Positions 1 to 25,205 of a stretch of 64,000 nt of DNA are shown piece by piece. The DNA lies in IMG/VR virus record IMGVR_UViG_3300029119_000326, one strand, 5' to 3'. The stretch is from a virus. The notes below the pieces were generated by a model. The model ran no database searches. It was given only the letters and a program-made list of their open reading frames with translations, and was not told where the DNA came from. Position numbers and translations under genes: made by a program. Positions within the stretch are counted from its first letter, which is position 1; the number at the start of each line of letters is the position of its first letter.

Positions 1-234
1 ATGGCTGAATCGGTTAACCAATATTCATATTTAACTAATTTACTGAATCAAGCTGAAAATCAATGGAGATTTCTTCAATATGACAAGAAAAATCATGCAA
101 AAGAATTTTACGATGCACTTGACCGTAAAACTGTTATAAACAGAACATTGGATATGGTTAAGCTTAGGCAGAAAACATTAAGCAGGCTAATAACGATTAA
201 GCAGATTAACAACCAAGAAATTAGTATGTATTAA
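1..234 (+). CDS. hypothetical protein (77 aa, may be partial at the window edge)
   Basis: ORF from position 1; no recognisable motif. Confidence 0.3.
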   Translation: MAESVNQYSYLTNLLNQAENQWRFLQYDKKNHAKEFYDALDRKTVINRTLDMVKLRQKTLSRLITIKQINNQEISMY

Positions 235-243
235 GGAGTATTT

Positions 244-924
244 ATGTTATACGATTTAGAAAACAAAAATTTGCAAAACTGGGTTAATAATTTTGATGAA
301 AAAACAAAAATTGAATCAGCCAACGCCTTTAATACTTATTATAAGATGAAATTACAAAATGTTATATATCCAAACAGTGCTGATATTTATAATGCTTTTA
401 AGAAAACTTCTTATGATGATGTTAAAGTTGTAATTTTAGGTCAAGACCCATATCACGAAGAAGGACAGGCAAACGGTTTAGCTTTTTCAGTCAATAACGG
501 TGTTAAAATGCCACCTTCATTAAAGAATATTTTTAAAGAACTTCAAGATGATGTCGGTGGTAAATTTCGTACTAATACTGATTTGACCGATTGGGCTGAG
601 CAGGGTGTATTTCTTTTGAACTCGTCTTTAACTGTTATAGAAGGTAGACCTAACTCAATGGCTGATATTTGGAATACTTTTACCGACAGTATCATTAAAC
701 TACTGAACAATAAGGAAAAACCTATTGTATTTGTTCTTTGGGGCAAAAATGCAAGAGATAAGAAAAAGCTGATTGATACCAAAAAACATTTTATTGTTGA
801 ATCTGCACATCCAAGTCCATTATCAGCTTACAGAGGTTTCTTTGGTTCAAAGCCGTTTTTAAAAGTAAATGAATATCTTATTTCTACCGGTCAAGTACCG
901 ATTGATTGGTTTGGTGAAAAATAA
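244..924 (+). CDS. ung: uracil-DNA glycosylase (family 1 UNG)
   Basis: Motifs GQDPYH...GQANGLAFSV and HPSPLSAYRGFFG; RBS taaggagta upstream. Confidence 0.9.
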   Translation: MLYDLENKNLQNWVNNFDEKTKIESANAFNTYYKMKLQNVIYPNSADIYNAFKKTSYDDVKVVILGQDPYHEEGQANGLAFSVNNGVKMPPSLKNIFKELQDDVGGKFRTNTDLTDWAEQGVFLLNSSLTVIEGRPNSMADIWNTFTDSIIKLLNNKEKPIVFVLWGKNARDKKKLIDTKKHFIVESAHPSPLSAYRGFFGSKPFLKVNEYLISTGQVPIDWFGEK

Positions 925-990
925 AAGAGAATTATATCTTATTGTATTATCAATTTGTGAGAGTTGTATGACAGAAAGAGGGTAGATATA

Positions 991-1212
991 TTGACAATTG
1001 TTCACTATAAAGGCTATTCAGGAGAAATCCATTATTCTAAAGAAGATAATTTGTTTGTTGGTCAGATAATAAATATCGTTGATTCAATCAATTTTCACGG
1101 AAAGACAATTGAGGAATGCATTGATAACTTTCATTTTTCTGTTGATGGTTATAACAAACTAAAAGAAAACATTTCAAAAAAGGAGAAAAAATATGCCGGA
1201 CAAAATCGTTAA
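991..1212 (+). CDS. HicB-like antitoxin family protein (orphan, no hicA seen)
   Basis: YKGYSGEIHYSKEDNLFVGQI...FHGKTIEE pattern typical of HicB_lk antitoxins. Probable TTG start at 991 after agaaagaggg. The 3' end overlaps the TIR gene start. Confidence 0.55.
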   Translation: MTIVHYKGYSGEIHYSKEDNLFVGQIINIVDSINFHGKTIEECIDNFHFSVDGYNKLKENISKKEKKYAGQNR

Positions 1213-2254
1213 TGATATACGAAAATTTGTAAAAGAAAATTTAATTAGTGACAATAAAAAAGTACATACATTTTCATTTGATGAAATCGGACCTGATTCA
1301 AACAATGATTTTATGGTAAGAAGATATGCAGAATTCATATGCTCTATTGCTAATCGTTCTTATTATTATGACAATATTGAATTCCTTTGTGGAATATGTT
1401 ATAGTACAAGAAATGTATTTTTTATAAGGAATGATATTGAAATGAGTCACGAATTAGTCTTTTCTATACCATATTTCGAAAGAAGTAAATACTACGATTT
1501 AATTTTAAAAATCAACAATTTAATCGGTCGTTTCGATTTAATGGCTGCTTTTGTAAATAATGCTCCTATTGCTTTTGAAATTACTTTTGTAGTTCAAACT
1601 GACTCTTCGGATGTATATGAGCAATGTAAAAAACTTACTTCTGAATGTGATGTTATAAAGAACAAAACATTTTATAACTATTTTTCCGAATGTAGAAATT
1701 TTAAAAGATATAATTTTTATTCATTGCCATTTGAAATGGATTACGACTCTTTTGTTAATGTCATGAATTATATCTGCTTCTTTGCTGAAAGTGACAAATT
1801 AGAAGAACAAGGCTATGCTCCTGTTAAGAAAAAGAAAAATGTACCAAAACTTTTCATATCATATCCACACGGCAGTAAAGATATTGTATATAAGATAACT
1901 GATTATCTTGTTGAACATAATTTTGATGTTTGGATTGATAAAAATGAAATCTTACCGGGTGATTCTTTCTTCAAAGCAATTTCTGATGGCTTTTACGAAG
2001 CTGATTTCTTTTTGATGTTTATAAGCAAAACTTCAATAAATGCTAATTATGCAAAAGAAGAAATACAGCATATTATCGACAACAAAATAAAACAAAATAA
2101 ATCGTTTTTTGTAATCAAATTAGATGATGTGCATCCAAATGACATTATGCAAAACTTGGATAATTACATGTATTACGATTTCTCTAAAAATGACAATTTA
2201 GAAGATTTGGCAAAATCAATAAAAGTAAAATTGGATAGAGATTTAACAGATTGA
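1193..2254 (+). CDS. TIR-domain protein (unknown ~230 aa N-terminal domain + C-terminal TIR)
   Basis: C-terminal KLFISYPHGSKD...WIDKNEILPGDSF...ADFFLMFISKTSINANYAKEE matches the TIR fold pattern. Perfect RBS aaggag. Confidence 0.75.
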   Translation: MPDKIVNDIRKFVKENLISDNKKVHTFSFDEIGPDSNNDFMVRRYAEFICSIANRSYYYDNIEFLCGICYSTRNVFFIRNDIEMSHELVFSIPYFERSKYYDLILKINNLIGRFDLMAAFVNNAPIAFEITFVVQTDSSDVYEQCKKLTSECDVIKNKTFYNYFSECRNFKRYNFYSLPFEMDYDSFVNVMNYICFFAESDKLEEQGYAPVKKKKNVPKLFISYPHGSKDIVYKITDYLVEHNFDVWIDKNEILPGDSFFKAISDGFYEADFFLMFISKTSINANYAKEEIQHIIDNKIKQNKSFFVIKLDDVHPNDIMQNLDNYMYYDFSKNDNLEDLAKSIKVKLDRDLTD

Positions 2255-2262
2255 GGAAAACT

Positions 2263-2586
2263 ATGGAACAGAAAAACATCAAAGAAAAATTACATAATCA
2301 TATTAAGCCATTAGGAGTAGGTAATATGTATTTTCTATATTATGATATTTCTACTCTTAGCGAAACAACTGCAACGGCGTTTCTAAATGACTTATATAAT
2401 CATTTTGTGAAGAGTATTAAAGAATATAACTGTAAATGCAAAAAGTCCGAACTTATGAAACCTAAGAAATATCAAATAGGATATGTTGTTAGTGTAGAAG
2501 GAAATTTTGCTGATTTGTCTAAAGTTGCATTTTTTGTTTCTAATATAATCAATGATGATGTAATGGGAAGGGTGAACAATGTATAA
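2263..2586 (+). CDS. hypothetical protein, translationally coupled between the TIR gene and the nuclease gene
   Basis: ATG after gagg. Overlaps the downstream gene start by 8 nt. Confidence 0.4.
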   Translation: MEQKNIKEKLHNHIKPLGVGNMYFLYYDISTLSETTATAFLNDLYNHFVKSIKEYNCKCKKSELMKPKKYQIGYVVSVEGNFADLSKVAFFVSNIINDDVMGRVNNV

Positions 2587-3418
2587 AAAAATTTCATTAA
2601 GTGTTATTTCTGTTATTATATCGTTGATTTTTTTGTTTGGTTGTTCAGCTAATGTAGTTAATAATACAACACAGCAGAGTACATTTGTATCTAATACTGC
2701 ATCAACTACAAACAGTCAAAATAGTACCGAAAATGATTTTACAAGTAGTACGACAACAGAACAGACTTTTGATATTTCTTCGATACCTGAATACAACGGT
2801 TCGCCCTATGTTGAAATTAACGATAATGTACCACAATTCACAGAAAGTGAAATTACTACATCATCATTTGAGATATACGGTGATTTAGATAGTCTTGAAC
2901 GGTGCACAACGGCTTTTTCCTGCATAGGTAAAGACTTAATGCCAACAGAAAAAAGAGGAGAAATAGGCTCAGTAAAACCGACAGGCTGGCATCTTGCTAA
3001 ATATGATTTCATTGACGGCAAATATCTTTACAATAGGTGTCATTTGATAGGTTATCAACTTACAGGTGAGAATGCTAATGAAAAGAATCTGATTACAGGC
3101 ACGAGATACCTCAATGTTCAAGGTATGCTGCCTTTTGAGAACGAAGTAGCTGAATATATTAAAAATACAAACAACCATGTTATGTACCGTGTAACACCTA
3201 TATTTGAGGAAGATAATCTTCTTGCCGATGGTGTGCAAATGGAAGGATATTCAGTTGAAGATAAAGGTGAAAGTATTTCGTTCAATGTTTTCTGTTATAA
3301 TGTTCAACCCGGTGTGAACATTGATTATGTAACCGGTGATAATTCTGCATCAGGAGAATACACAACAGCGACTGATGAAGATATAACGGATGCATATATT
3401 GTAAATCTCAATACATAA
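2579..3418 (+). CDS. secreted lipoprotein, DNA/RNA non-specific endonuclease (EndA / DNA-entry nuclease-like)
   Basis: Signal peptide with lipobox LFGC. NRCHLIGYQLTGENANEKNLITGTRYLN resembles the Endonuclease_NS_2 active region. Confidence 0.7.
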   Translation: MYKKISLSVISVIISLIFLFGCSANVVNNTTQQSTFVSNTASTTNSQNSTENDFTSSTTTEQTFDISSIPEYNGSPYVEINDNVPQFTESEITTSSFEIYGDLDSLERCTTAFSCIGKDLMPTEKRGEIGSVKPTGWHLAKYDFIDGKYLYNRCHLIGYQLTGENANEKNLITGTRYLNVQGMLPFENEVAEYIKNTNNHVMYRVTPIFEEDNLLADGVQMEGYSVEDKGESISFNVFCYNVQPGVNIDYVTGDNSASGEYTTATDEDITDAYIVNLNT

Positions 3419-3547
3419 AAATTCCACAAACCAAGTTGTAGTTCAATATCTCGAATGAGTGAGAAAAATAAAAAACAATACAAAGGAAAAAGAAGCAGTT
3501 TGATTAACAATGGTTACGAGCCTTGTAAAAACTGCAATTCATAAGAT

Positions 3548-3784
3548 ATGACTAATTACACATCAGACAAGCCCAAAAGTACAGAATATACATATTTTGT
3601 TGCAACAGCAGTGAATAGTAAGGATAATTCTACAAGCAAACAGTTATTCAGAGAACACTTTGCTACTGTTGAGGTATATAATATACATAACGGTCATTTT
3701 GTAGAAAATACTAATTATGTTCCTATTAGAACACATTTTATTTCATCTTCATTTGACTTGGCTCTGTCATATCGCTTACGATAA
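3548..3784 (+). CDS. hypothetical small protein (78 aa)
   Basis: ORF only. Confidence 0.3.
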   Translation: MTNYTSDKPKSTEYTYFVATAVNSKDNSTSKQLFREHFATVEVYNIHNGHFVENTNYVPIRTHFISSSFDLALSYRLR

Positions 3785-3802
3785 TTCAAGGAGGAAAATT
3801 CA

Positions 3803-3961
3803 TTGAAAAAATATAAAGTGATTTGTAATGGTAAAGTCAGTTATCATACACAAAAAGAAACAAAAAAATTAATACAAGAATGGGGCAAAAAGAATAATGA
3901 TCCAATCTATTTACTCGATGAGACTTGGATGTTGAGAGATACAATATATTTGAACAAAATA
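3803..3961 (+). CDS. hypothetical small protein (52 aa, TTG start)
   Basis: Strong RBS aaggagg 7 nt upstream of TTG. Followed by a terminator. Confidence 0.35.
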
Positions 3962-3973
3962 TAATATTTTTTA

Positions 3974-4001
3974 GAGTAACCTTTATGGTTGCTCTTTTTT
4001 T
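3974..4001 (+). terminator. rho-independent terminator
   Basis: gagtaacc-tttat-ggttgctc hairpin followed by a T7 run. Confidence 0.5.
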
Positions 4002-4007
4002 ATCAAT

Positions 4008-4068
4008 TTGTTATAGTAACTATAACAAATTTTATTGACAATTTTGAATATGTACAGTATAATGTACA
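4008..4068 (+). promoter_or_regulatory. yefM-yoeB promoter and operators
   Basis: 21-nt perfect palindrome ttgttatagtAactataacaa (4008-4028). -35 TTGACA (4035-4040), 17-nt spacer, -10 TATAAT (4058-4063). Two TGTACA motifs (4051-4056, 4063-4068) like the known YefM operator core. Confidence 0.6.
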
Positions 4069-4092
4069 TATAATAAGATTGGAGATGATATT

Positions 4093-4341
4093 ATGACTAA
4101 CACAAATATAACTAATTTCAGAAAGAACTGCTTTGAATATATTAATCAGGCTGTAATGTACAATGATGTTGTTAGTGTTAATACTAAAAACGGAAATGCT
4201 GTTGTTATCAGTGAAGATGATTATAACGGCTTACTTGAAACTCTTTATCTTTCCAATGACCAAAAGGTTAAGAATGAAATTATTGCCGGAAAAAATGCTA
4301 CGCTTGAAGAATGTGTTGATGAAAGTGAGATTGACTGGTAA
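4093..4341 (+). CDS. yefM: Phd/YefM family antitoxin
   Basis: YefM-like N-terminus. Stop overlaps the yoeB start (taATG). Confidence 0.8.
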   Translation: MTNTNITNFRKNCFEYINQAVMYNDVVSVNTKNGNAVVISEDDYNGLLETLYLSNDQKVKNEIIAGKNATLEECVDESEIDW

Positions 4342-4604
4342 TGTATAAAATTGTATATACAAAGACTGCTGTTAAGCATATTAAAAATCTTAAATTATCA
4401 AATCTTGATAAAAGAGCAAAAGCTTTGATTGAGGTTATTAGAGAAGAACCGTTCAAGAATCCACCACCTTATGAAAAATTAGTGGGAAATATGGATGGTT
4501 TGTATTCTCGAAGAATTAATATTCAACACCGGCTTGTTTATCAAATTTATGAAAATGAAAAAACAATAAAGATAGTAAGTATGTGGACCAATTATGAGTT
4601 CTAA
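4341..4604 (+). CDS. yoeB: YoeB/Txe family toxin (ribosome-dependent mRNA interferase)
   Basis: ...SRRINIQHRLVYQI...Y C-terminal YoeB signature. Confidence 0.85.
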   Translation: MYKIVYTKTAVKHIKNLKLSNLDKRAKALIEVIREEPFKNPPPYEKLVGNMDGLYSRRINIQHRLVYQIYENEKTIKIVSMWTNYEF

Positions 4605-4622
4605 TTATTTATACAAGAAAAA

Positions 4623-4661
4623 AGGCTTAAATTCAAATTAATGAATTTAAGTCTTTTTTTA
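4623..4661 (+). terminator. rho-independent terminator after yoeB
   Basis: aggcttaaattc-aaattaat-gaatttaagtct stem followed by T7. Confidence 0.6.
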
Positions 4662-4925
4662 CATTTTATAGTACATTGGAATACAATCTTTAATTCATAA
4701 ATTACATAAATTAAATGTCAATATTAAGTTCATGCCTACTGTGTCTTATTTGTAGTGTTTATTTTCCAATATTTACCTGTTGTTTAAGCAAAAAAACGGT
4801 ATTAAAATTAAATTATAAACAAAAAACACATTGAAAAAATGTATTTTTAGTAAAAAATTACTATATACTGTCAGAACGAAAAATAAATATTTTTCACAAA
4901 CTAAAAAATATTGAGGCGATTATAT

Positions 4926-5021
4926 ATGTCAAAAAGATTACATTTGAAAGAAAGAAAACTCCCTAAGAGTATTGTAGATAAATTGGTTGATATTTTGACA
5001 GAATTAGGATACGAACAATAA
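4926..5021 (+). CDS. small ORF (31 aa), truncated paralog of the N-terminus of the next gene
   Basis: SIVDKLVDILTELGYE resembles KIVNDLVNTLNDLGYK in the 5039 gene. RBS gagg. Confidence 0.25.
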   Translation: MSKRLHLKERKLPKSIVDKLVDILTELGYEQ

Positions 5022-5038
5022 TTGAAAGGAAATAAGTA

Positions 5039-5419
5039 ATGAAGCCTGAGAAAATTCCTAAAAAAATAGTTAATGATTTAGTAAACACTTTAAATGACTT
5101 GGGATATAAAACGGAAGTATTGGAAAATACAAATGATTTATATGTTGTTTGGAAATCAAATGATGGATATTATTTTTGTGCATCTGATTACTTCCCAAAA
5201 CGCAGTGATATACCGGCAATAATTGGTAGTGGATATTTATATATGGATAGTATGCTGTTTTGTTGTCCTATTGATGTACCAATTAGCAAGGATAATGTTG
5301 CATACATCATTAATGAGTTAAAGAAAAATATAGCAAAATTATATGACGAAAAAAATATTGTAAAATTTCTTTTAAACAGTGACAAATATTTTGAAAAATG
5401 GAAGAAAAGTGAAAACTAA
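5039..5419 (+). CDS. hypothetical protein (126 aa)
   Basis: RBS gaaagga; no motif. Confidence 0.4.
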   Translation: MKPEKIPKKIVNDLVNTLNDLGYKTEVLENTNDLYVVWKSNDGYYFCASDYFPKRSDIPAIIGSGYLYMDSMLFCCPIDVPISKDNVAYIINELKKNIAKLYDEKNIVKFLLNSDKYFEKWKKSEN

Positions 5420-6180
5420 AACTTAAATATTATATTTTTCGTATTTGATATAATACTATATGTCTTACTTCCATGCTCATTTTCTTCTTGTGAAAACCAA
5501 TTACCAAAAATAACTATTTTAGTTTTTATATACTTTTTAAAATTAGTGAAATATTTATCTTCAATTTCCCAAAATAATTTTGTATCTAAAACACGCAATG
5601 TTAGTTTTAGAATTTTATTTGTATCTGTTGTTGATTGAATTTCTATCGTGAATTCATGCGTTTTTTTATTATAAATAACAATATTACCTTCAACTAATTT
5701 TAAACCTGATATACCATTATTAATAATATTATAATCAAGTGTATTTTTGTTGATGAAGAAATCCTTGATTTTTAATCCGTTAAGATATTCTGTGTTGTAG
5801 TCATTAGCACAACAATAAGCGTATAGTTGTCTTGTAGTATGTATGTTACAAGTTTTCACATCACCATCATGACTGCGATTATCAGTATTATTCTGTCTGT
5901 TATTGCCTTCTTCATTGGAATTGCCTCTCTCAAAAATATCTTCGAGTGAGTGTTTATCAATTATATTATCAGACTTTTCAGAATAGTCTGATATATATTT
6001 ACAATCACTGTTTTTATCATGCTCGTTTTTTGCTCTGAAATATGGAGGATATATTCCTTTAAATGATGCAACAATTACTTCTGTTTTACAATAAGGACAA
6101 TAATACTTATTTCCTTTATTATCAGAATTAATATCTCTGATGTTTATCAATTTACCATTTTGATCTAATGCTATTCTCAT
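5416..6180 (-). CDS. CoiA-like family protein (N-terminal zinc ribbon; competence CoiA-like nuclease superfamily)
   Basis: MRIALDQNGKLINI...YYCPYCKTEVI...YFRAKNEH resembles the CoiA N-terminus. Confidence 0.45.
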   Translation of the reverse strand: MRIALDQNGKLINIRDINSDNKGNKYYCPYCKTEVIVASFKGIYPPYFRAKNEHDKNSDCKYISDYSEKSDNIIDKHSLEDIFERGNSNEEGNNRQNNTDNRSHDGDVKTCNIHTTRQLYAYCCANDYNTEYLNGLKIKDFFINKNTLDYNIINNGISGLKLVEGNIVIYNKKTHEFTIEIQSTTDTNKILKLTLRVLDTKLFWEIEDKYFTNFKKYIKTKIVIFGNWFSQEENEHGSKTYSIISNTKNIIFKF

Positions 6181-6288
6181 TTTTACAATTCTCCAATCTT
6201 AATAATAATGTAATTATATAGCATTAACGGAGAAAATACAAATAAATCATATCAGATTAAATAGAAAAGTGAGGTTAAAAAAGCAATT

Positions 6289-6471
6289 ATGAAAACCTTT
6301 TACAAGAAAGCTTTGAAAAATCATTATGCTGTTACTTGCCCTTATTGTTGTTCGGCATATGTTTCCGAATTAAACCATCCTATTAGCAGTATCGACAATA
6401 ATATTACTGTTTACTGTTATCTTTGCCATGATTGTGGTGAAAAATGGATGGATAAAGAGTTTAAGTTATAA
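6289..6471 (+). CDS. small zinc-ribbon protein (60 aa, CxxC...CxxC)
   Basis: CPYCC...CYLCHDCG; RBS gtgagg. Convergent with the CoiA-like gene. Confidence 0.4.
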   Translation: MKTFYKKALKNHYAVTCPYCCSAYVSELNHPISSIDNNITVYCYLCHDCGEKWMDKEFKL

Positions 6472-6873
6472 GAAATTTGCAGTAAAAAAGCACCTTGATT
6501 CAACAAGGTGCTAAATTGTGTTACATTTTTTATCAACAACGAGGGAATCTTTTGTATTATTTTATTTTGTATTTTTACTAAAAATGCAAAATTCTGTTGT
6601 TTGTGGATTTTTCTATACTGATTTATACAAAAGAAATTATATGGATAAATACAACATTTTTTTATGTGTTTTTTGTTTTTGGTTACTATATATGATTAAA
6701 GAAGCTTATATAAGTTGTTTTAAAAATTCTTTACGAATAACCAATGTGTTAAGTGAACAAGTGTTATTCTACACTAATTGTTTTGATTTGTCTACAGTTA
6801 TATTTTTCCAATTTGTGAAAAATATATTAATTTTTCACAAATGATAAAATAAATTTTCGGATTTTTAAAAATA

Positions 6874-6883
6874 TTACTATATA
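6874..6883 (+). promoter_or_regulatory. TTACTATATA promoter-like motif (copy upstream of the tracr/mini-array RNA)
   Basis: Member of a motif that recurs at least 10 times, T-run + TTACTATATA. Confidence 0.4.
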
Positions 6884-6949
6884 TATCATGAAAAGGTTAA
6901 TAAGCCTTTTAGGTAGAATTAGCTACCAGAAGCTATCGCTAAACATTTA

Positions 6950-7054
6950 TGTTAGATAGTAATGAATTAACAAAGGTTAAATAGTTAGTCCGCTTGCAAC
7001 TATGCCAGAGCATGAGATAGAGCTATTTAACAATGTTTAACTTTGTGATTTGAG
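6950..7054 (+). ncRNA. tracrRNA-like module (anti-repeat + nexus-like TAGTCCG + hairpin)
   Basis: ttagatagt is complementary to repeat positions 9-17. ggttaaat is complementary to the repeat 5' GTTTTA. agtTAGTCCGcttgCAACTatg resembles the S. pyogenes tracrRNA nexus ggcTAGTCCGttatCAACTtg. Conserved at 61245-61347. Confidence 0.5.
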
Positions 7055-7153
7055 GTTTTAGAACTGAAATTACATGATACTAAAAGCGCAAAAGGATGTG
7101 GAACGAATGACCGGAATGGTTTTAGAACTGCATGAATTGCATGATACTAAAAG
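7055..7153 (+). CRISPR. mini-CRISPR array, type II-like: repeat (32 nt) - spacer (32 nt) - repeat (35 nt)
   Basis: gttttagaactgaaattacatgatactaaaag / spacer cgcaaaaggatgtggaacgaatgaccggaatg (50% GC vs ~30% locally) / gttttagaactgcatgaattgcatgatactaaaag. Confidence 0.55.
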
Positions 7154-7179
7154 CGAAAGACAAAATTAGTATCATAAAG

Positions 7180-7204
7180 TCCTAAAAGCTTTTAGGATTT
7201 TATG
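7180..7204 (+). terminator. terminator after the mini-array
   Basis: tcctaaaag/cttttagga perfect inverted repeat followed by ttttat. Confidence 0.5.
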
Positions 7205-7325
7205 ATGTTAATTTAAAACATCATTGAACCTTGAAAATTGAATATTGATAGTTTTTAAAAAAATATAGTTTCTCTGAAAAAATGAGATTTTTTAGAAGAA
7301 AAACCGAACATAAAAAAAGGCCGAA

Positions 7326-7347
7326 AAGCCTTGATTTTACTACGGTT
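7326..7347 (+). terminator. possible terminator
   Basis: aaggc-cgaaaa-gcctt followed by tgatttt. Confidence 0.3.
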
Positions 7348-7494
7348 TTAGTTGAAATTTGAGTACCTATATGGTATAATAGAAGTAGATAAAGGAAACT
7401 ATCGAATACGGTAGGCGGTTAGTCCTCTCAATTACAAAATTTGGGAGGATAATAAAATTCCTCCCTTAAATAAATATGAAGGGAGGATGATATT

Positions 7495-7560
7495 ATGGAA
7501 TATTCAGTGATAACAACATTAATACTTATTATTACTCTAATTCTCATAATAAAAAAATAA
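7495..7560 (+). CDS. candidate type I toxin-like small hydrophobic peptide (21 aa, MEYSVITTLILIITLILIIKK)
   Basis: Strong SD gggagga 7 nt upstream. An upstream gggagg/cctccc hairpin (7444-7465) could sequester the SD. 12/13-nt inverted repeats (aggcggttagtcc at 7414-7426; ggactaaccgtct at 7599-7611) flank the unit. Promoter-like ttgaaa-N17-tataat at ~7351-7380. Confidence 0.35.
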   Translation: MEYSVITTLILIITLILIIKK

Positions 7561-7713
7561 CCGCCCAGTCTGAATGAGCGATTATTTTTAAAAATAAAAC
7601 ACCTTTGGACTAACCGTCTATCCGACAAGTCCTTTATCTATAAGTATATTAACACAGGAAATAATATTTGTCAAGATTATGAATATAATCTGAATTTATA
7701 AGGAGGAAAATAA

Positions 7714-8943
7714 ATGAAAAACAAAACTAAAATGTTATCAATCGTTTTGGCGATTGTTATGATTCTAACAAGTGTCAGCATTGGTGTGCCGACATTCGCA
7801 GCAAGTAAGCCAAGCGCAACGCAAATTACTTCAATTAAGGCTGTTGATAATGGCTTTAAAGTTAAGTGGAAAAAGAAATCTTGCACAGGTTATCAGGTGC
7901 AGTACAGTACCTCAAAGAAGTTTACTTCAAAAACTTCTAAAACTTTGAAAGTAAACAAAGCAAAGACTACAAGCAAAACTGTAAAGAAACTCAAAGCAAA
8001 AAAGAAGTATTATGTAAGAGTAAGAACATACAAAACTGTTAAAAAGAAGAATTACTATTCAAAGTGGTCGGCTAATTACAGCGTGACTACTAAGGCAAAG
8101 AAAGGTTCTTCAAGCAGACCAAATAATTCTTCTGTTATTGCAATTCGGTCGGTATCGTATATAACCGGTAAAAACTATGGCTTTAAAGTTACTTGGAATA
8201 AAGTCAGTGGTGCGCAGGGATATAAAGTAGAGTGTTCACAAGATAAAAATTTTAAAGAATTTCTTTATTCTTGTGAAATCAACAACGGAAATATTACATC
8301 TAAAACATTTACTGAAAATAAAGATGGAATTGATACCGATGCTGCGGCAATTACTACTTGGTATTTTAGAGTAAAATATTATGATAAAAATTTCAACTCT
8401 AAACCTTGGTCAAAAGTTGTTGTTAAAGACTCATATGAAAAAAATGACTATACAAATCTAATGAATAATGCTTATAATGAAATGAATATTACATCTTCAA
8501 TGACTGATATTCAAAAAATAGGTGCTATTCAAAATTGGATTGGAAATCATTGGGAGTATGCACAAAACAAAAATTACGAAGATGCTTTTGATACTTACCA
8601 ATTAGCAAAATACGGATATGGCGCTTGTGGTCAGTTTGCAGAAAATTTTGTCTATTTCTGTAACAAAGCTAATTTAAAGTGCTATGTTATTAGTGGTTCA
8701 AGAAAGATAACAACAGGTGACCATACTTGGAACTTTATATGTGTTAATGGCGAATGGTATAATTACGATTGTGAATCAGGAGTTGGAAAAGCTGGCTTTT
8801 TTCCTGAAAGTAGAGCTACTGAATCATATAAACTTGATAGTTTAAGCGAATCAATTTTCATGTCGAATCAACCACATGGCAATAACCATAAAGCGTTAAA
8901 TGAAAAATTATATTATTTTTATCCATTGTGTAAAAATAATTGA
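7714..8943 (+). CDS. secreted protein with Fn3-like repeats and a C-terminal transglutaminase-like cysteine protease domain
   Basis: Signal peptide. Repeats ...GYQVQYSTSKKF...KKLKAKKKYYVRVRTYK. GACGQFA...GDHTWNFI...YNYDCE Cys/His/Asp core. Confidence 0.6.
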   Translation: MKNKTKMLSIVLAIVMILTSVSIGVPTFAASKPSATQITSIKAVDNGFKVKWKKKSCTGYQVQYSTSKKFTSKTSKTLKVNKAKTTSKTVKKLKAKKKYYVRVRTYKTVKKKNYYSKWSANYSVTTKAKKGSSSRPNNSSVIAIRSVSYITGKNYGFKVTWNKVSGAQGYKVECSQDKNFKEFLYSCEINNGNITSKTFTENKDGIDTDAAAITTWYFRVKYYDKNFNSKPWSKVVVKDSYEKNDYTNLMNNAYNEMNITSSMTDIQKIGAIQNWIGNHWEYAQNKNYEDAFDTYQLAKYGYGACGQFAENFVYFCNKANLKCYVISGSRKITTGDHTWNFICVNGEWYNYDCESGVGKAGFFPESRATESYKLDSLSESIFMSNQPHGNNHKALNEKLYYFYPLCKNN

Positions 8944-9087
8944 GCAAAAGTCAATTTTAAAAAAGTGTACTTTATATTAAATAATAATATATCATCTAAT
9001 TGTCATCATGTATAGGCAAAAGTATTGAAAAAGCAGTTTAAATGTTACTGAAAAACAATCATAGTTTGTTGCAATTAAAATAATTTT

Positions 9088-9126
9088 AAGAACTATCAAA
9101 TTTTATGTTTGATAGTTCTTTTTTTA
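9088..9126 (+). terminator. rho-independent terminator
   Basis: Perfect 13-bp stem aagaactatcaaa/tttgatagttctt followed by T5. Confidence 0.55.
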
Positions 9127-9280
9127 TGCATAAAACTAAATAATTGAAAGGTGGTGAATGGTAATGAAAAAATATTTTTCAGGATTTATTTAGAATGAAA
9201 TTGAAAGATTTTATTTTATTTTCCGGAAAGTAAATTAAAAAAATTAAAAACTAAAAGTCTCAAAGAAAGGAGAGGACTAT

Positions 9281-12200
9281 ATGAAAATTCGAAATAAAAC
9301 GATCGGGAAGCGCATATTAGCTGTGCTATTATCATTGCTTACAGTATTAAGCTGTATGACGATAGGATTCGCACCGGCATATGCACTTGATTCGACAGCT
9401 AAAGAATGGAACGGACATCACCGGTTTTCTGTTGATGGAAAAGATGCATATTGTATTAACTACGGTCAAGCTTCAAATGGCAAATTTGAAACAAATACTG
9501 CGGCAAGAAAATATTGGTCCAGTTTAGGTTCAACTAAACAAAACAATATTGAAAAAGTTCTTACATATGCAGGTGATAAAGGCTATTTGAATTCATCAAA
9601 AGATGAAACATATTTTGCCGTTCAAAGAGCAATTTGGAAACAAATAAACAACAAAGCTGAAAACGAACTGAAGAGCTGGTTTAAATCTCAAACCAAGAGT
9701 GTTTACGATGATATTATTGATAATTATAAAGGTAGTGCATATAAAACTACTAAACCAAAATTTAGTAACATAATACTTGAAGCACAATATGATAAAGACG
9801 GTAATGTTACATCATACAAAGGTTCAGGTACAGATAAAAATAGTGTATTGTCTAATTGGTCCATTACTGATAAAGCAGGACTTACTGTTAGCACTTCAGG
9901 CAGTAAACTCAATGTATCGTCAAGCAGTTATTTTGCTGGTAAGAAGACCATAAAACTTAAAAGTAAAAAGAAATTTTACACTATCGCTTCAGATCAAATA
10001 GGACATTTTGGTGACCAAGAAGTTATTGCTATTGGTACTTCAAAAGCTATTGAATCAAAGTTGTCAGCATCTATTGATAAAAATTATGGTTCAATTCAAA
10101 TTACAAAAATAGCTGAAACAGGCGAAGTAATGAGTGGTATTCAGTTTGATTTGTATGATTCGACAGGCAATACATATTATGCTTCTGATTGGACTGATGA
10201 AACAGGTGTGGCATCGTTTGATGATATTAATGCCGGTACATATGTAGTTAAGGAAGTATGTCCTGATGGTTATGTACCTTATGGTTCAATTTATCAGCAA
10301 ACGGTAACAGTAACAGCTAAGCAAACAACCAATGTAGCAAATCATCCAAGCGGTAAATGGGTAAATACCTTGCAGCGTGGTGATATTTATATCCATAAGA
10401 CGATTGAGGATACAAATACACCGTATCAAGCACAATTTACATTGTATGATTCAGACGGTAATTATGTATTGTCAGGAACAACAAATACTGCCGGTGATTT
10501 GTATTTTTGTAATGTACCGATTGGATATTATCAACTTAAAGAAACCAATACATTTAACGGTAATGTTATAGATTGGCAAAAGGTATATTATACTTACGAT
10601 TATAATTCCGGTCAGTATGTAGCAAATAAGGGTGATTCGATATATGTAGCATGGGATGGTCAAACAAGTTATCCATATGCAAATCAAGTATGTCATAACG
10701 GTTGGTTGAACGATAATGATGATGTAACAAAAGGTGGCGTAAATCTTTGCGATTGGTATAACCTTATTAACTATTCAGGTGAAAATACAATAGTTAATAG
10801 ATATAAGCGTGGCGATTTAAGATTGCATAAATTAGCAGAAGAGCCAGTAGAAGTATCGGAAAACGGTTATACATATAAGTACACATCAAACGATAATGTA
10901 GGAACATATAAATCATTATCCGGTGCAACATTTACTGCTACAAGCTACTCAAATCAAAATGTTTTGGGTAGAGATTTAACATTTACAACTACTACCGGTG
11001 CAGACGGATATGCATATTTCTGCGATATGCCAATTGGTGTATATACAGTACAAGAGGTTAATACAGACAGTAAGTATGTTCAACCGGCTTCACAAACATT
11101 TTATGTTGATTGGGATGGCAATACTTCCTATGATGTATCAGGTGCTAATTTTAGAAACACTGCAAACTACTTTACAGGTAATAATACAAACACATTAACC
11201 TTTATCAATTACTTGAAGTATTTTAGATTTGAGTTTTCAAAACTTGATGAAACTACAAACAGTTCAACTGCTCAAGGTGATGCTTCACTTGCAGGTGCTG
11301 TGTATGAATTGTATAAAGGTGATGAACTTGTAGGCACATATACGACAGATGCAAAAGGTAAATTTACCACAAAGTATCATGTATGCGGTTCAGATTATTA
11401 CCTTAAAGAAAAATCATCTTCATCCGGTTACTTTATCAACCCTGATAAAATAACCATTTCGGAAGATTGTACTAAATATACTGCACGATTAAATGATACA
11501 AAGTATTCACAAACCGAACTTGAAAAATACGGCAAAATCGAAATCATTAAGCATTACGATCCTGATGATGAAACACAAATTGAGCAACCTGAAGAAGGAG
11601 CTGAATTTCAAGTATATTTGAAATCTGCCGGCTCATATGATAATGCAAAAGATAATGAAAAGGATTATCTTGTAACGGATAAAGACGGTCATGCTGTATC
11701 TAAAAAATTGCCTTACGGTGATTATGTAATTCACCAAACAAAAAGCACTGAAGGCACGCTTTTTGTACCTGATAAAGTACAAGGTATACAAACAGGTTTA
11801 AACGGTGATAAATTTTATTCTGATGATTACCTTATTAAAAACAACGATGTATCAATTGAAGATACTGTAATTTCATATAAGTATTTGATGTTAGATACAC
11901 TCGATAAAGCGTATATCAAACTTGTAAAAGAAGACAGCGAAACAGGTAAAATAATTCCATATAACGAATTACAGGGTGCTGTGTTCCAAATTCTTGATAA
12001 GGATTTGAATGTTATTTCAATGACATATACATACCCAAAGAAAATAACTGTTAACTCTTTTACAATTAACGATGAAGGATATATTATCACTCCACAGAAG
12101 CTTAAATACGGCACATATTATCTTGTAGAAGTACAATCACCATACGGATATTATAATCCAAACGGTGAGCTTGTAAGCGTTGATAACGGTACATATAAAT

Positions 12201-18953: not shown

Positions 18954-21443
18954 ATGAAAGATGAAGAAAAGAAGTTAGGAAATAAAATCAAGAAAAAAAT
19001 AAAACAAATAAAAGAGTTTGTAATGAAACATCCAGTAAAAACAGTATTAAGCATAATAGTTTTATTGTATGTTTCAGGAATAATGAGTGAAGCACTGTAT
19101 CAAGCAATTCACTTTGGGGAAATACGAAACGGTAATGGCATACCATGGTATATGTTGTCTTGGAGTCCGAAAGCAATGTTACAATGGTGTACAAGCGTAA
19201 GAGGTTTCATTTGCCTGTTATTGACAATAGTAGCAGCATATCTATTGTGGATATACGGTGTTAAACCTCGTGTTAAAGAAGAGACAGGTAAGGACAATAT
19301 AGATATACCTTTCAAGTATTCAGAAGAAAAGCCGTATGGTTCAGCAGAGAAAATGACGGAAGAAGATTTGGAAGATATATTGGAATTCAAACCGATAGAA
19401 GAAACACATGGAATTATATTAGGACAAACCTATGATGGAAAGGTAGTATCAATTCCTACATCGGAAGAATTTGAAGAAAAAGCAAAAAGAAAAAATTGGT
19501 CACGAGATGATATGACCAATAATACAAGAAACAGAAACATTCTTGCTATTGGCTCACCGGGTACTATGAAGACAAGAGCACTAATAATGAATCAAGTATT
19601 TCAAGCAATAGTACATGGGGATTCAATAATGATAACAGACCCAAAAGGAGAAATATATGAAAAGACATATAATCGCCTTAAAGAGAATGGTTATGATGTA
19701 AGAATGTTTAACCTTATCAAGCAGGACCACAGTGATAGTTGGAACCCAATAAACGAATTAAAGGTTGAGGACTATGATACATTCAATCCAATTGAGATAT
19801 TAAGAAACTCATCAGATAAGACACAAAGAAAAGTCATATCAAGTGTATACGCAAAAATATTTGCATCCACCATTGTTAATAATGCAGATGAAAACGGAGA
19901 AAAGTATTGGAGCGATAACGCAATGAATGTATTGAAATCATGTTTGATGTTAAAAGATATGGATAGTCTTGGTAAGATATATGATTTCATAAGCAGAAGT
20001 ACGATTGAACAGCTTGCATTAAAGTTTTCAGATGCAGATGATGAATCGGTAGCAAGAAGAGCATTTGATATATTTAATCAAAGTTCAGAAACAGTAAAAG
20101 GTCAAATAATAAACGGACTTGGCATTATGATAGATGTATTTCAGGATGAAAGAATCAGAAATATGACAGGTTCAAGTGAGATTGATATGACAAAACCTGC
20201 AAAGGAAAAGTGTGCATACTTTGTTATAACATCAGACCAACACAGAACATTTGACTATTTGGCAGTTTTGTTTTGGACTATGGCATTCATAAAGCTTATT
20301 GAATACATAGATGAAAACAGAGACGAAAAGGGCGATCCGACCACCTTACCAATACATATGTTGCTTGATGAATTTCCAAATATAGGTGAGATACCGGATT
20401 TCAACCGTAAGTTAAGTACAGTAAGAAGTAGATTGATATATACAACAATAATCATTCAAAACTTACCTCAATTGATGAACCGTTATCCTAACGGAATGCA
20501 TGAAGAAATATTCTCGGACTGTGACTTTACAGTATTCCTTGGTTGTAATGACTACACAACAGCAGAATACATAAGTAAATTAACAGGTATAGCGAGTATA
20601 GAAGTAACAACGCAAAACAGTACCTATGCAAGAAATGTAATGGTACTTAATCAAGACCCGAATTTTAAAGAAGTAAAATCAATAGGTCAAAGGACAGTAA
20701 TGAATGCTGATGAGGTAAAGTCAATTAAGAATACAGATTTGCTTATCTTTATCAGAGGCACAAAGTCTGTATATCAGTGTAAAAAATTTGACTATTCAAA
20801 GCATCCATTTGCAAAGGATTTAAAAATAGCAAAAATAAAAGACTATGTTCCTGAATGGAAACAACAACTAATTGATGATGCAAAGGAACAAATCAGAAGA
20901 AATGAAGAACGCTTAAAGAAAGAAGCAGAAGAAAAAGAAAGAGAAAGACTGATCCAAGAAAAAGCTATTGAAAGAGAAAATCGAAGAAAAGAAATGATGA
21001 AACAAGATGAAGATGATTTCTTTGAAGGATTTACGCAGCAGGCAATCAATTTTGATGATTACCTTCAAAACAAAAAAATAGCAAATAAAGAAGATTTTAT
21101 AAATACAGAAAATGAATCTGAAAACGAAATTAAGTTAATAACAGAGAAGCAAACTCTTGATGAAATAAATACAAATGAAAATGATATATTTTCTACATTA
21201 CTCGGTGATGAAGAAGATACAATTCCTAACCTAACAAACTCTAAAAACAAATCAACTAACAAAAAAGACACAAAGTCAAAAAATGAAAAAAAGATAATAT
21301 CAAGAAATACAATGCAGAATAAATTAAATGCAATAAGTAAATCGCTTGATAAAATCGAAGATGAAAATGTAGAACTGGATATAAAAAAAGAGGCAGAAGA
21401 CATTTTTGGAAATTTTGACTTTAGTAATAATAACGATAATTGA
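18954..21443 (+). CDS. type IV secretion coupling protein (VirD4/TraG/TraD family) with a charged low-complexity C-terminal tail
   Basis: N-terminal TM segments. Walker A GSPGTMKT. TDPKGE. DHSDSWNP. LLDEFPNIGEIP...RSRLIYTTIIIQNLPQL. Confidence 0.8.
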   Translation: MKDEEKKLGNKIKKKIKQIKEFVMKHPVKTVLSIIVLLYVSGIMSEALYQAIHFGEIRNGNGIPWYMLSWSPKAMLQWCTSVRGFICLLLTIVAAYLLWIYGVKPRVKEETGKDNIDIPFKYSEEKPYGSAEKMTEEDLEDILEFKPIEETHGIILGQTYDGKVVSIPTSEEFEEKAKRKNWSRDDMTNNTRNRNILAIGSPGTMKTRALIMNQVFQAIVHGDSIMITDPKGEIYEKTYNRLKENGYDVRMFNLIKQDHSDSWNPINELKVEDYDTFNPIEILRNSSDKTQRKVISSVYAKIFASTIVNNADENGEKYWSDNAMNVLKSCLMLKDMDSLGKIYDFISRSTIEQLALKFSDADDESVARRAFDIFNQSSETVKGQIINGLGIMIDVFQDERIRNMTGSSEIDMTKPAKEKCAYFVITSDQHRTFDYLAVLFWTMAFIKLIEYIDENRDEKGDPTTLPIHMLLDEFPNIGEIPDFNRKLSTVRSRLIYTTIIIQNLPQLMNRYPNGMHEEIFSDCDFTVFLGCNDYTTAEYISKLTGIASIEVTTQNSTYARNVMVLNQDPNFKEVKSIGQRTVMNADEVKSIKNTDLLIFIRGTKSVYQCKKFDYSKHPFAKDLKIAKIKDYVPEWKQQLIDDAKEQIRRNEERLKKEAEEKERERLIQEKAIERENRRKEMMKQDEDDFFEGFTQQAINFDDYLQNKKIANKEDFINTENESENEIKLITEKQTLDEINTNENDIFSTLLGDEEDTIPNLTNSKNKSTNKKDTKSKNEKKIISRNTMQNKLNAISKSLDKIEDENVELDIKKEAEDIFGNFDFSNNNDN

Positions 21444-24773: not shown

Positions 24774-25205
24774 GTGAAAAATACGAGCATAAGAATTGCA
24801 TTGTTGTTAATGTGTATTATTGTTATTTCTTCTTCAAGTGCTTATGCAGCGACATATAAAGTCGAAGAAGGAAAAGAAGAAACAATTACAGTTAATGTTG
24901 ATTATAACAAGACAACTGCAGAAAGCACTACGAAAAGTGAAACTCAATATACAGAAAATAATACCACTAATGTTGTAACTACTGAAATCGTTAGTACAAC
25001 AGAACCAAATATTGTGCAAACAACAAGTGAAACTATTGCCACAGAAACCACACCGAAGCCAACAAAAACCAAGGCAACAAAAAAACATAAAAAAGAAAAA
25101 AGTGTAAAAACTGGTTTCAACACTTTACCGTTATATTTTACAATAATAGGACTGGCAATATTATTGATTATCATGAAAAGAAAGAGGGTGCGAATAAATG
25201 AGTAA
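24774..25205 (+). CDS. small T-rich surface protein with a sortase-type sorting signal (SVKTG + TM + KRKR)
   Basis: Signal peptide. C-terminal SVKTGFNTLPLYFTIIGLAILLIIMKRKRVR. Confidence 0.5.
   Translation: MKNTSIRIALLLMCIIVISSSSAYAATYKVEEGKEETITVNVDYNKTTAESTTKSETQYTENNTTNVVTTEIVSTTEPNIVQTTSETIATETTPKPTKTKATKKHKKEKSVKTGFNTLPLYFTIIGLAILLIIMKRKRVRINE

Follow-up and report, generated by a model that had tools for sequence, protein, structure and literature searches.

A TIR-domain cassette between an orphan HicB-like gene and a lipoprotein nuclease gene in a probable conjugative element of a gut Firmicute

Gene content of the locus

The window, meaning the whole stretch of 64,000 nt that was analysed, is deposited as a virus (IMG/VR record IMGVR_UViG_3300029119_000326) and carries near its beginning four tightly packed genes on the + strand. 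The initial annotation, made from the sequence alone, described them as a HicB-like gene, a gene for a protein with a TIR domain, a small ORF and a gene for an EndA-like lipoprotein nuclease, next to a uracil-DNA glycosylase (UDG) gene. These domain calls proved right (PHROG 9151, Pfam TIR_2 and Pfam Endonuclea_NS_2, respectively), all four ORFs exist at the coordinates listed below, and UDG does adjoin the block. The features of the region are:

244-924, + strand: UDG, a context gene (Pfam UDG, E=4.7e-18)
991-1212 (964-1212 if translation starts at TTG 964), + strand: orphan HicB-like ORF, 73 aa from TTG 991 or 82 aa from TTG 964
1154-2252, + strand: TIR cassette, a presence/absence polymorphism (blastn, junction sequences)
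1193-2254, + strand: TIR protein gene, 353 aa, with a strong ribosome-binding site (AAGGAG)
1193-1840, + strand: N-terminal domain of the TIR protein (aa 1 to ~215), family-defining, a putative sensor or oligomerisation domain
1853-2206, + strand: TIR_2 domain (aa 221-338; Pfam TIR_2, E=5.6e-21)
2263-2586, + strand: ORF3, a 107-aa orphan protein, ATG 2263 with ribosome-binding site GAGGA
2579-3418, + strand: lipoprotein DNA/RNA non-specific endonuclease of the beta-beta-alpha-Me type (Pfam PF13930, Endonuclea_NS_2, E=5.9e-25)
3548-3784 and 3803-3964, + strand: two small ORFs downstream of the nuclease (ORF list)
3973-3995, + strand: intrinsic terminator-like hairpin downstream of the two small ORFs
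4035-4063: sigma-70 promoter (12/12) downstream of that hairpin
4093-4604, + strand: Phd/YefM-YoeB type II toxin-antitoxin pair (Pfam PhdYeFM_antitox, E=4e-7; YoeB_toxin, E=1.5e-10)

UDG belongs to the same co-directional transcription unit as the HicB-like ORF, and no terminator was found between the two. In relatives they are separated by 1.6 kb holding three extra genes (67, 186 and 253 aa, the 253-aa gene upstream of the HicB-like ORF being Metallophos-like), an insert that the window lacks. Downstream of the nuclease, the ORF at 3548 is kept in relatives (dN/dS 0.10), and the hairpin at 3973-3995 probably ends the transcription unit. The Phd/YefM-YoeB pair that follows is a canonical and separate toxin-antitoxin system with its own promoter (4035-4063) and is given as context only. 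No Rfam RNAs were found in positions 1-8000.

The phage identity implied by the IMG/VR entry was rejected, since none of 10 large ORFs matched a virion PHROG and the window carries conjugation genes (coupling protein, TED/SpaA adhesin and topoisomerase III). The region lies with T4SS genes (together with a methyltransferase and UDG) on one side and adhesin and coupling-protein genes on the other, and relatives carry VirB4 and NlpC/M23 hydrolase genes upstream. We consider, with odds somewhat in favour of this reading, that the stretch is best explained as lying in the variable accessory part of a large conjugative element whose host would be a low-GC gut Firmicute; human-gut metagenomes commonly carry the element.

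Backbone genes and the TIR cassette

TTG 991 is the better start for the HicB-like ORF, with GAGGG located 7 nt upstream. The ORF matches PHROG 9151 ('HicB-like antitoxin', E=2e-13) and is named 'predicted HicB family RNase H-like nuclease' in the JGI annotation; no Pfam or NCBIfam family was matched, and its PDB matches by phmmer consisted of superoxide dismutases only and were dismissed as spurious, so that the HicB homology was recovered by PHROGs and tblastn only. With tblastn, 128 plasmid records matched, with annotated HicB genes under the matches listed, as did the annotated HicB of Burkholderia phage ST79. BLASTP against the latter (E=4e-16) aligns the ORF to residues 5-73 of 129, and the ORF stops where the RHH of ST79 HicB begins, leaving the C-terminal DNA-binding (RHH/HTH) domain absent. 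The HicB similarity put forward in the initial annotation is therefore real but, judging from these alignments, it is confined to the N-terminal HicA-binding domain, of which the ORF is a true homologue (dN/dS 0.11-0.13). As had also been noted, hicA is missing: none is adjacent, the upstream gene being UDG in the window or the Metallophos-like gene in relatives, and none was found in the 64-kb window at E<=10 with ST79 HicA as a phmmer query against the six-frame translation, a single-sequence search of limited sensitivity.

The overlap between the HicB-like ORF and the start of the TIR gene amounts to 20 nt, in agreement with the initial description. However, three metagenome contigs from independent samples (L106, L107 and L108) harbor the HicB-like, ORF3 and nuclease backbone without the TIR gene. 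There, ~90 nt of intergenic DNA take the place of ~1154-2252 and include a promoter-like TTTACT..GTGTAATAT situated just upstream of the ORF3/nuclease pair. In blastn comparisons, window positions 931-1153 and 2253-3784 match L107, and 926-1146 and 2253-3318 match L106, with no match in between in either case. Repeats flanking the cassette were looked for and none were found. The C-terminal tail of the HicB-like protein differs in the TIR-less variants and switches exactly at the cassette boundary, the last ~20 codons of the ORF being part of the cassette. Given these backbones, with ~90 nt replacing the cassette, the overlap of the two genes is a by-product of the cassette boundary.

ORF3 was said to overlap both of its neighbours. 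The 8-nt overlap with the nuclease start stands, but ATG 2263 is most likely the start of ORF3, which from there begins 8 nt past the TIR stop codon; an overlap with the TIR gene arises only from the upstream TTG 2251. ORF3 is translationally coupled to the nuclease and belongs with it and not with the TIR gene, as TIR+ and TIR- variants alike have it immediately before the nuclease gene. No family, PDB, plasmid or phage match was obtained for ORF3 (dN/dS 0.22; dS 1.6 versus 0.19 in the nuclease), and it is broken by a nonsense mutation in L106 and by a frameshift in L019 next to an intact nuclease in both, the TIR gene of L019 also being present and intact. A role as inhibitor or immunity protein of the nuclease fits the constant adjacency but is not supported, since ORF3 is dispensable beside an intact nuclease (L106, L019) and has no homology to any family. 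Nuclease homologues are found on Lachnospira plasmids, C. perfringens plasmids and gut phages; those in Lachnospira, C. perfringens and a gut phage follow a conserved gene (135-139 aa in two loci, with a shorter form of 86 aa in C. perfringens); equating ORF3 with that gene was likewise rejected for want of similarity (E 1.7-2.4). The nuclease itself scores 88.4 bits against PF13930 (cut-off 27) and matches Spd1 (4.6e-12), streptodornase D (Sda1) and EndA in the PDB. Its motifs NRCHLIGYQ (NRCHL) and EKNLI (EKNL) align to Spd1, so that the catalytic His of the (D/N)R(G/C)H motif and the Mg-binding Asn are kept, and a signal peptide with an LFGC lipobox is seen in the translation.

These observations bear on the proposal of the initial annotation that the four genes form one operon in which the HicB-like protein would inhibit the TIR toxin as part of a non-canonical type II toxin-antitoxin or defence module. 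The 20-nt overlap, the tight spacing on a single strand and the constancy of the four-gene block in close relatives (at least 90% amino-acid identity) fit such a design, and small inhibitors of TIR NADases do exist, such as phage Nip acting against SpbK (PMC11984713). Nevertheless, we regard the proposal as very improbable. The HicB-like gene occurs without a TIR gene in L106-L108, where the overlap region can be seen to be cassette-derived, and TIR genes occur without a HicB-like gene in L001-L003, L026-L069, L074, L080, an Enterococcus faecalis plasmid (pGTC3) and a Lactococcus plasmid; the diverged TIR homologues that could be placed lack ORF3 and the nuclease nearby as well, so that co-conservation of the block, on which the initial annotation had made the proposal depend, fails. 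The constancy among close relatives reflects one recent lineage only, the HicB-like protein is without the DNA-binding domain that type II antitoxins usually have, and ORF3 is broken in L106 and L019 while the nuclease, and in L019 also the TIR gene, is intact. The HicB-TIR toxin-antitoxin idea thus fails, and knowing this spares experimental effort.

The TIR protein and its family

The C-terminal part of the TIR protein has the TIR fold by profile (Pfam TIR_2, 75.7 bits versus a cut-off of 28). Its Glu E290 (codon 2060-2062) lines up with the equivalent Glu in AbTIR (8g83), 7uxr and Cat1 (9mud); in AbTIR this is the catalytic residue of the WxxxE motif, at the start of helix alpha-C. At least 90% of 43 aligned family members keep E290, so that the glutamate on which the initial annotation had made its idea depend is in place. 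The TIR_2 match, the alignment and conservation of E290 and the dN/dS of the gene (0.06-0.16) suggest that the domain is catalytically competent, a putative NADase. On the other hand, the Trp of WxxxE is Tyr or Phe in this family, and the AF2 model of the TIR half is of low confidence. Matches to PADLOC and NCBIfam models are confined to the TIR part and have modest E-values (PDC-S66, 1.8e-11; retron-TIR, 2.3e-12; ThsB profiles weak, at 1e-4 to 4e-4), the protein falling far under the curated cut-offs (46.5 bits versus 600 and 31.7 versus 220); the PADLOC model scan returned no SpbK-named family. By eye, the N-terminus of the window protein shows no hydrophobic signal-peptide-like stretch, and the longer annotation of the pGTC3 homologue starts with a hydrophobic stretch.

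The N-terminal ~215 aa, which had been called unrecognisable and a possible sensor, matched no family, as stated there, and are conserved and family-defining, which leaves a sensor role plausible. A search with this domain returned 46 representatives out of 1.84 billion proteins, nearly all of 330-373 aa, and 43 of 43 aligned full-length members consist of the N-domain followed by the TIR domain. Judged by these proteins, the N-domain (~210 aa) is always fused to TIR in a small, rare family for which, as far as we found, there is no earlier description; a scan of GTDB species representatives found the gene in one MAG only. The shared N-terminal module ('KIVND') suggested for the TIR protein and the small ORFs at 4926 and 5039 did not hold up: 6 of 9 residues agree with the ORF at 5039 (BLASTP E=0.11 in a single comparison), which is chance level given this E-value and the location of the echo in the least conserved part of the family alignment.

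Related loci were searched with a 10-sequence subset of the 43-sequence family alignment, and 51 ORFs in diverged loci (L001-L003, L005, L026-L069, L072, L074 and L080) fit the family profile over a stretch that begins with the N-domain. No homologues of the HicB-like, ORF3 or nuclease genes were found beside them within at most 8 kb on each side, some contigs being very short; the diverged homologues that could be placed share 28-42% identity and none has these genes nearby, nor do the annotations of the plasmid loci in E. faecalis and Lactococcus list any of them near the TIR gene. The identifiable neighbours are conjugation genes (relaxase, SSB, VirB4, wall hydrolase, coupling protein and adhesin), the only neighbours common to several lineages. 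L001 carries a solo TIR gene with an SSB gene among its neighbours; the gene order is relaxase, TIR, DUF3801 and coupling protein in L026, SSB then TIR in L029, and ParB, exonuclease, TIR and adhesin in L037. On the E. faecalis conjugative plasmid pGTC3 (TIR gene WP_172689756.1) and a Lactococcus MOBP plasmid (TIR gene WP_120773403.1), a VirB4-like ATPase and a lysozyme/CHAP gene are followed by TIR and SSB. The elements come from gut Clostridia, Enterococcus and Lactococcus, a search of 50,697 phage records gave no hit, and wherever the family was seen it was in a conjugative element, with no case in a defence island or prophage.

With such placement, a conjugation-linked role fits no worse than a general defence against phages. 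The family might thus be an establishment, anti-defence or exclusion factor expressed from the transfer operon, which might consume NAD+ or NAD-derived immune signals, block TIR immunity of the recipient or act in donor-recipient conflict. If true, this would be the first known TIR enzyme with an establishment or anti-defence role, as we know of none. All readable contexts lie within or beside transfer genes (relaxase, SSB, ParB, VirB4, wall hydrolase, coupling protein), the neighbours in the window lineage are typical of establishment or anti-restriction (orphan N6/N4 methyltransferase and UDG; SSB in L001), and the adhesin synteny kept at 28-42% TIR identity suggests long residence in these elements. 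Additionally, leading regions are rich in anti-defence genes (PMC11541004), the placement here being relative to transfer genes and not to an oriT. However, the main text of that study does not mention TIR or NAD, the TIR gene can be done without, as in L106-L108, depletion of NAD+ would be harmful to a new host unless the enzyme is tightly regulated, and SpbK shows that a TIR abortive-infection gene can be ICE cargo (PMC8880864). We hold this role to be unlikely. A broader version, in which everything from the methyltransferase and UDG through the HicB-like, TIR and nuclease genes would be an anti-defence or establishment island, with TIR as a conserved conjugation accessory and the HicB N-domain disarming HicA-type toxins of the host, appears to us rather improbable; within it, TIR might break down immune second messengers derived from NAD, or it might poison the host's TIR-based immunity.

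We also weighed whether the TIR protein is a virulence or immune-modulation factor directed at the host, of the Tcp type (TcpC, BtpA, TcpF, TirE), that is delivered to the gut epithelium or released near it. In favour of this, human-gut metagenomes often contain the element, genes for secreted adhesins and a secreted nuclease are close by, and enterococcal TIR proteins are reported to dampen TLR/MyD88 signalling (PMC4131471, PMC4219826, PMC6304867). The idea is barely credible, as an intracellular enzyme is what the catalytic Glu and the family-specific N-domain suggest and the window protein does not begin like a secreted one, although the longer pGTC3 annotation has its hydrophobic start. 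Identity with TcpF or TirE was rejected on context, which differs (chromosomal with a GTPase; phage-derived element).

The explanation that we favour, with modest confidence, is that three independent units make up the stretch as a mosaic, with a single-gene sensor-TIR NADase as cargo. Their independence follows from the TIR-less L106-L108, the 51 diverged ORFs without the other genes, the solo TIR gene of L001 and the change of the HicB tail. The first unit would be an orphan HicB remnant with the N-domain only; the second a self-contained TIR cassette whose N-domain and TIR_2 domain may act alone as sensor and effector; the third the small orphan ORF coupled to an exported Spd1/EndA-type lipoprotein nuclease. 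The trigger sensed by the N-domain would most likely be a protein of a phage or other invading element, and its recognition would lead to TIR oligomerisation, NAD+ hydrolysis and growth arrest in an abortive infection, as for SpbK of ICEBs1. Arguing against this explanation are the placement in conjugative elements only, the weak PADLOC/NCBIfam matches to the TIR part alone, the Tyr/Phe substitution and the low-confidence AF2 model.

Comparison with known systems

The HicB-like ORF shares with HicAB systems the N-terminal HicA-binding, partial RNase-H-like domain of HicB. Unlike HicAB, the single-sequence search of the 64-kb window found no hicA, the C-terminal RHH/HTH domain is absent, and the downstream gene encodes a TIR protein instead of an RNase toxin, in a pair that is not co-inherited. 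Thoeris ThsB, RT-TIR retrons, SAVED-TIR, TIR-pAgo and PDC-S66 possess the same TIR_2 type, but only the TIR part matches, and a scan of six nearby proteins (HicB-like, TIR, ORF3, nuclease, the ORF at 5039 and the minus-strand ORF 5416-6180) revealed neither ThsA nor a reverse transcriptase, SAVED or Argonaute partner. The nuclease shares the fold family, catalytic His motif and export signal of Spd1, Sda1 and EndA; it differs from them in being a lipoprotein whose long linker is rich in Ser, Thr and Asn, in its location on a conjugative element and in having ORF3 upstream.

The closest likeness is to SpbK (YddK) of B. subtilis ICEBs1, like the TIR gene here a non-essential gene on a Gram-positive conjugative element. 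SpbK is a single cargo gene, necessary and sufficient for abortive infection, whose NADase is activated when its N-domain binds the phage portal, and it needs no partner gene (PMC8880864, PMC11984713), just as the present family has no conserved partner gene. Both proteins have the same two-part layout, in which a recognition domain (putative here) is followed by TIR_2 at the C-terminus, the catalytic Glu being E192 in SpbK and E290 here. They are likened by architecture and placement. SpbK has 266 aa with an N-region of ~95-115 aa, whereas the family described here has ~340 aa with an N-domain of ~210 aa. As to placement, spbK presumably comes directly after the VirB4 (conE) and wall-hydrolase (cwlT) genes of ICEBs1, which would be the neighbourhood that the Lactococcus and E. 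faecalis family members have. The family, with WP_172689756.1 of pGTC3 and WP_120773403.1 of Lactococcus as tractable members, would thus extend the SpbK paradigm of one-gene TIR immunity on conjugative elements with a new putative sensor domain.

Gene arrangement and the conjugative element

The HicB-like ORF, the TIR gene, ORF3 and the nuclease gene are closely packed on the + strand within window 900-3600, with overlaps of 20 nt (HicB-like/TIR) and 8 nt (ORF3/nuclease); an overlap between the TIR gene and ORF3 was also claimed in the initial annotation, but the two genes are instead separated by an 8-nt gap. No intrinsic terminator was found between the UDG gene and these four genes, and no Rfam family was found in window 1-8000.

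Main features of the window
244-924: UDG
964 or, more plausibly, 991 (TTG in both cases) to 1212, + strand: HicB-like ORF; GAGGG Shine-Dalgarno 7 nt before TTG 991
1193-2254, + strand: TIR protein gene, 353 aa; ATG start, RBS AAGGAG
2263-2586 (most likely), + strand: ORF3, 107 aa; ATG start, RBS GAGGA overlapping the TIR stop codon
2579-3418, + strand: nuclease gene, 279 aa; ATG start
3973-3995: first convincing terminator after the four genes
4035-4063: perfect sigma-70 promoter, after that terminator, serving a separate Phd/YoeB pair
9281-15148: TED/SpaA adhesin
18954-21443: type IV coupling protein

Topoisomerase III is also encoded in the window. Dozens of metagenome contigs, the longest of 964 kb, contain close relatives (at least 90% amino-acid identity). 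In these an upstream part with an NlpC/M23 hydrolase, VirB4/TraC, an orphan N6/N4 methyltransferase, DUF1064 and UDG is followed by a variable gene set, the four-gene block, a transglutaminase, the adhesin and the coupling protein. Most close relatives carry, between UDG and the HicB-like ORF, ~1.6 kb that the window lacks (window 918-926 vs 8332-9936 of the related contig L014), which encodes three proteins of 67, 186 and 253 aa, the last being Metallophos-like; ~9 nt are common at the junction. The region is therefore a hotspot of indels and variable accessory genes within a cluster of conjugation genes. Two IMG/VR contigs classed as viral (L112 and L113, UViGs of 47.7 and 166 kb) carry the locus as well. 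The window, however, encodes T4SS coupling and adhesin proteins, and none of its ten large unannotated ORFs that were searched matched a virion PHROG; the viral label in IMG/VR may be wrong, or the element may be a very large composite.

Other genes of the element deserve mention. A 1971-aa ORF in mid-element, downstream of the coupling protein (25198-31113), has no Pfam or PHROG match, and a T4-type RNA ligase (Rnl1 family, E=2.8e-30; 43636-45072) and an SPFH/flotillin protein (31301-32716) are both unusual cargo for a conjugative element. The sole sizeable minus-strand gene of the first 9 kb (5416-6180, 254 aa) is conserved in relatives and shows a weak match, under the cut-off, to a DUF7828/CoiA N-terminal zinc-ribbon-like domain (E=1e-4). 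A 36-aa ORF at 4911-5021 (…KLPKSIVDKLVDILTELGYEQ) resembles the N-terminus of the 126-aa ORF at 5039-5419 (…KIPKKIVNDLVNTLNDLGYKTE), as if the 5' end of a gene had undergone a short tandem duplication; a homologue of the latter ORF forms part of a 268-aa protein in two related loci (L009 and L010).

Co-conservation of the four genes

The block is constant among close relatives, which represent only one recent lineage. Homologues of the HicB-like ORF with 75-83% identity occur in three contigs from three different samples (L106, L107 and L108), in the order Metallophos gene, HicB-like ORF, ~90 nt of intergenic DNA, ORF3 and nuclease gene, with no TIR gene. Window 931-1153 and 2253-3784 match L107 (blastn), and in these TIR-less variants a short AT-rich spacer (TTTACT..GTGTAATAT, just 5' of ORF3) stands for window ~1154-2252, the TIR cassette. 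The C-terminal tail of the HicB-like protein switches at the cassette boundary (...GYNKLKENISKKEKKYAGQNR in the window vs ...KYILLQEDCAQR in L106); the 20-nt overlap thus arises because the HicB-like frame reads on into the TIR cassette and does not reflect evolved coupling. Searches including a metagenome scan also yielded diverged loci (28-42% identity) in which 51 ORFs fit the family profile, starting with the N-domain (the ~210-aa N-terminal part of the TIR protein); no homologue of the HicB-like ORF, ORF3 or the nuclease lies near any of the 51 (up to 8 kb on each side, some of the contigs being very short). Given the TIR-less variants and the stand-alone diverged homologues, the genes are not co-conserved, an outcome that the initial annotation had itself named as contrary to its proposal; the idea that they form one toxin-antitoxin or defence operon does not hold.

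A toxin-antitoxin model pairing HicB with TIR is unlikely; the HicB-like similarity on which it drew was itself borne out, by PHROG 9151 'HicB-like antitoxin' (E=2e-13), while Pfam, NCBIfam and PDB sequence searches gave no match. By tblastn the ORF matches 128 plasmid records; the matches listed fall on genes annotated as HicB, many of them with an adjacent hicA. It also matches the HicB of phage ST79, itself a neighbour of a HicA toxin. The pairwise alignment to the 129-aa ST79 protein covers residues 5-73 (E=4e-16), and the window protein ends where the ribbon-helix-helix domain of ST79 HicB begins; the ST79 HicA query found no match in the six-frame window. Since the alignment stops before this domain and HicA has no match in the window, the ORF is an orphan HicB with the N-terminal domain only, which is under purifying selection (dN/dS 0.11-0.13) and is a minor curiosity.

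The nuclease unit

The nuclease (PF13930 in Pfam, E=5.9e-25) has Spd1, streptodornase D and EndA among its homologues, retains the catalytic NR(G/C)H histidine and carries a lipoprotein signal peptide (LFGC). ORF3 adjoins it in TIR+ and TIR- variants alike and is therefore considered part of the nuclease unit; no ORF3 relatives were detected beyond the element lineage of the window (families, PDB, plasmids and phages). The L107 ORF3 (1453-1776, vs window 2263-2586) shares 54% amino-acid identity, and its dS of 1.6 vs ~0.19 for the nuclease and flanking genes indicates allelic replacement. ORF3 is under purifying selection (dN/dS 0.22), and only its first ~50 residues are well conserved between L107 and the window, so that the C-terminal half is hypervariable. 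A nonsense codon interrupts ORF3 in L106, as does a frameshift in the related locus L019, both beside an intact nuclease; ORF3 is thus not strictly required. A function as inhibitor or chaperone is a reasonable guess, as yet unsupported.

A different conserved gene precedes related nucleases in a Lachnospira eligens megaplasmid, C. perfringens pJFP55F and a Faecalimonas phage.

Genes immediately upstream of Spd1/EndA-like nucleases
L006 3391-3798
L007 2562-2822
L008 2354-2773

Their products (135-139 aa in two loci, 86 aa in C. perfringens; MKLIxxVDDxxGxxFNNRRQSQDKxLR…) form an uncharacterised family with no Pfam match, a candidate nuclease partner or inhibitor. The phage copy overlaps the nuclease gene by 8 nt, as ORF3 does; no relation was found between ORF3 and this family.

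The TIR family and its probable role

The TIR assignment holds down to the catalytic glutamate. Residues 221-338 match TIR_2 (Pfam, E=5.6e-21), PADLOC, NCBIfam and PHROG matches being confined to the C-terminal part, and phmmer against PDB aligns the protein to 7uxr, Cat1 and AbTIR, with E290 (second Glu of NYAKEEI, codon 2060-2062) on the corresponding Glu of all three. In AbTIR this residue is the catalytic WxxxE glutamate. Full-length homologues are very rare (three clusters in a 5.8-billion-protein index); an exhaustive HMMER search that used only the N-domain gave 46 representative clusters, nearly all of 330-373 aa, with the common motifs IPYxxRSxY, FVNNxPY, a GY linker and the TIR signature with E290. 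In one cluster representative (P0001) a 22-nt deletion (L004 1060-1075 vs window 2231-2262) takes out the TIR stop codon and the ORF3 RBS, and the TIR protein is 7 aa longer (…KLDNYGTEKHQRKIT).

Wherever identifiable, the neighbours of the family are conjugation or DNA-processing genes; one locus (L030) has no recognisable marker genes around TIR. Among 50,697 phage records the family had no match.

Neighbourhoods of TIR family genes
L001: DUF6017, SSB ... TIR, CAP protein, TED/SpaA adhesin, coupling protein
L026 and L069: MobA/VirD2 relaxase, TIR, DUF3801 ... coupling protein
L029: ParB, SSB, 64-aa ORF, TIR
L031-L068 (large group): ParB ... DUF6075, RNase T-like exonuclease, TIR, lipoprotein, adhesin homologous to that of the window
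E. faecalis conjugative plasmid pGTC3 (WP_172689756.1, profile E=5e-105): TIR directly after a glucosaminidase-domain gene, possibly a T4SS wall hydrolase
E. faecalis plasmid EFD32pB: TIR family gene present, fragmented
Lactococcus MOBP plasmid (WP_120773403.1, profile E=9e-98): VirB4-like ATPase, hypothetical, lysozyme/CHAP, hypothetical, TIR, SSB ... MobP2 relaxase

A Tcp-type virulence role of the TIR protein is unlikely. The main rival is a role linked to conjugation itself, in establishment, anti-defence or exclusion, which agrees with the exclusive placement of the family among transfer genes and with the company of the TIR gene in the window lineage (methyltransferase, UDG, SSB). That leading regions are islands of anti-defence genes is known (PMC11541004), but TIR and NAD do not occur in the main text of that study.

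On the best-supported reading, the TIR gene would act autonomously as a sensor-effector, carried as cargo by conjugative elements in the manner of SpbK. Its N-domain is conserved and private to the family, and its distribution is that of a single gene; the N-domain would bind a trigger, the TIR domain would act as an NADase and the outcome would be abortive infection. There is precedent for TIR cargo genes on ICEs, and nothing is unusual about the nuclease, UDG or Phd/YoeB; the novelty lies in the N-domain family and in how tightly it is associated with conjugation modules of Gram-positive bacteria. In SpbK, a single gene of ICEBs1, the N-terminal region binds a phage portal protein, and this binding switches on the TIR_2 NADase and leads to abortive infection (PMC8880864, PMC11984713). 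The TIR protein of the window resembles SpbK in its intact TIR domain with the catalytic Glu, its single-gene organization and its residence in conjugative elements.
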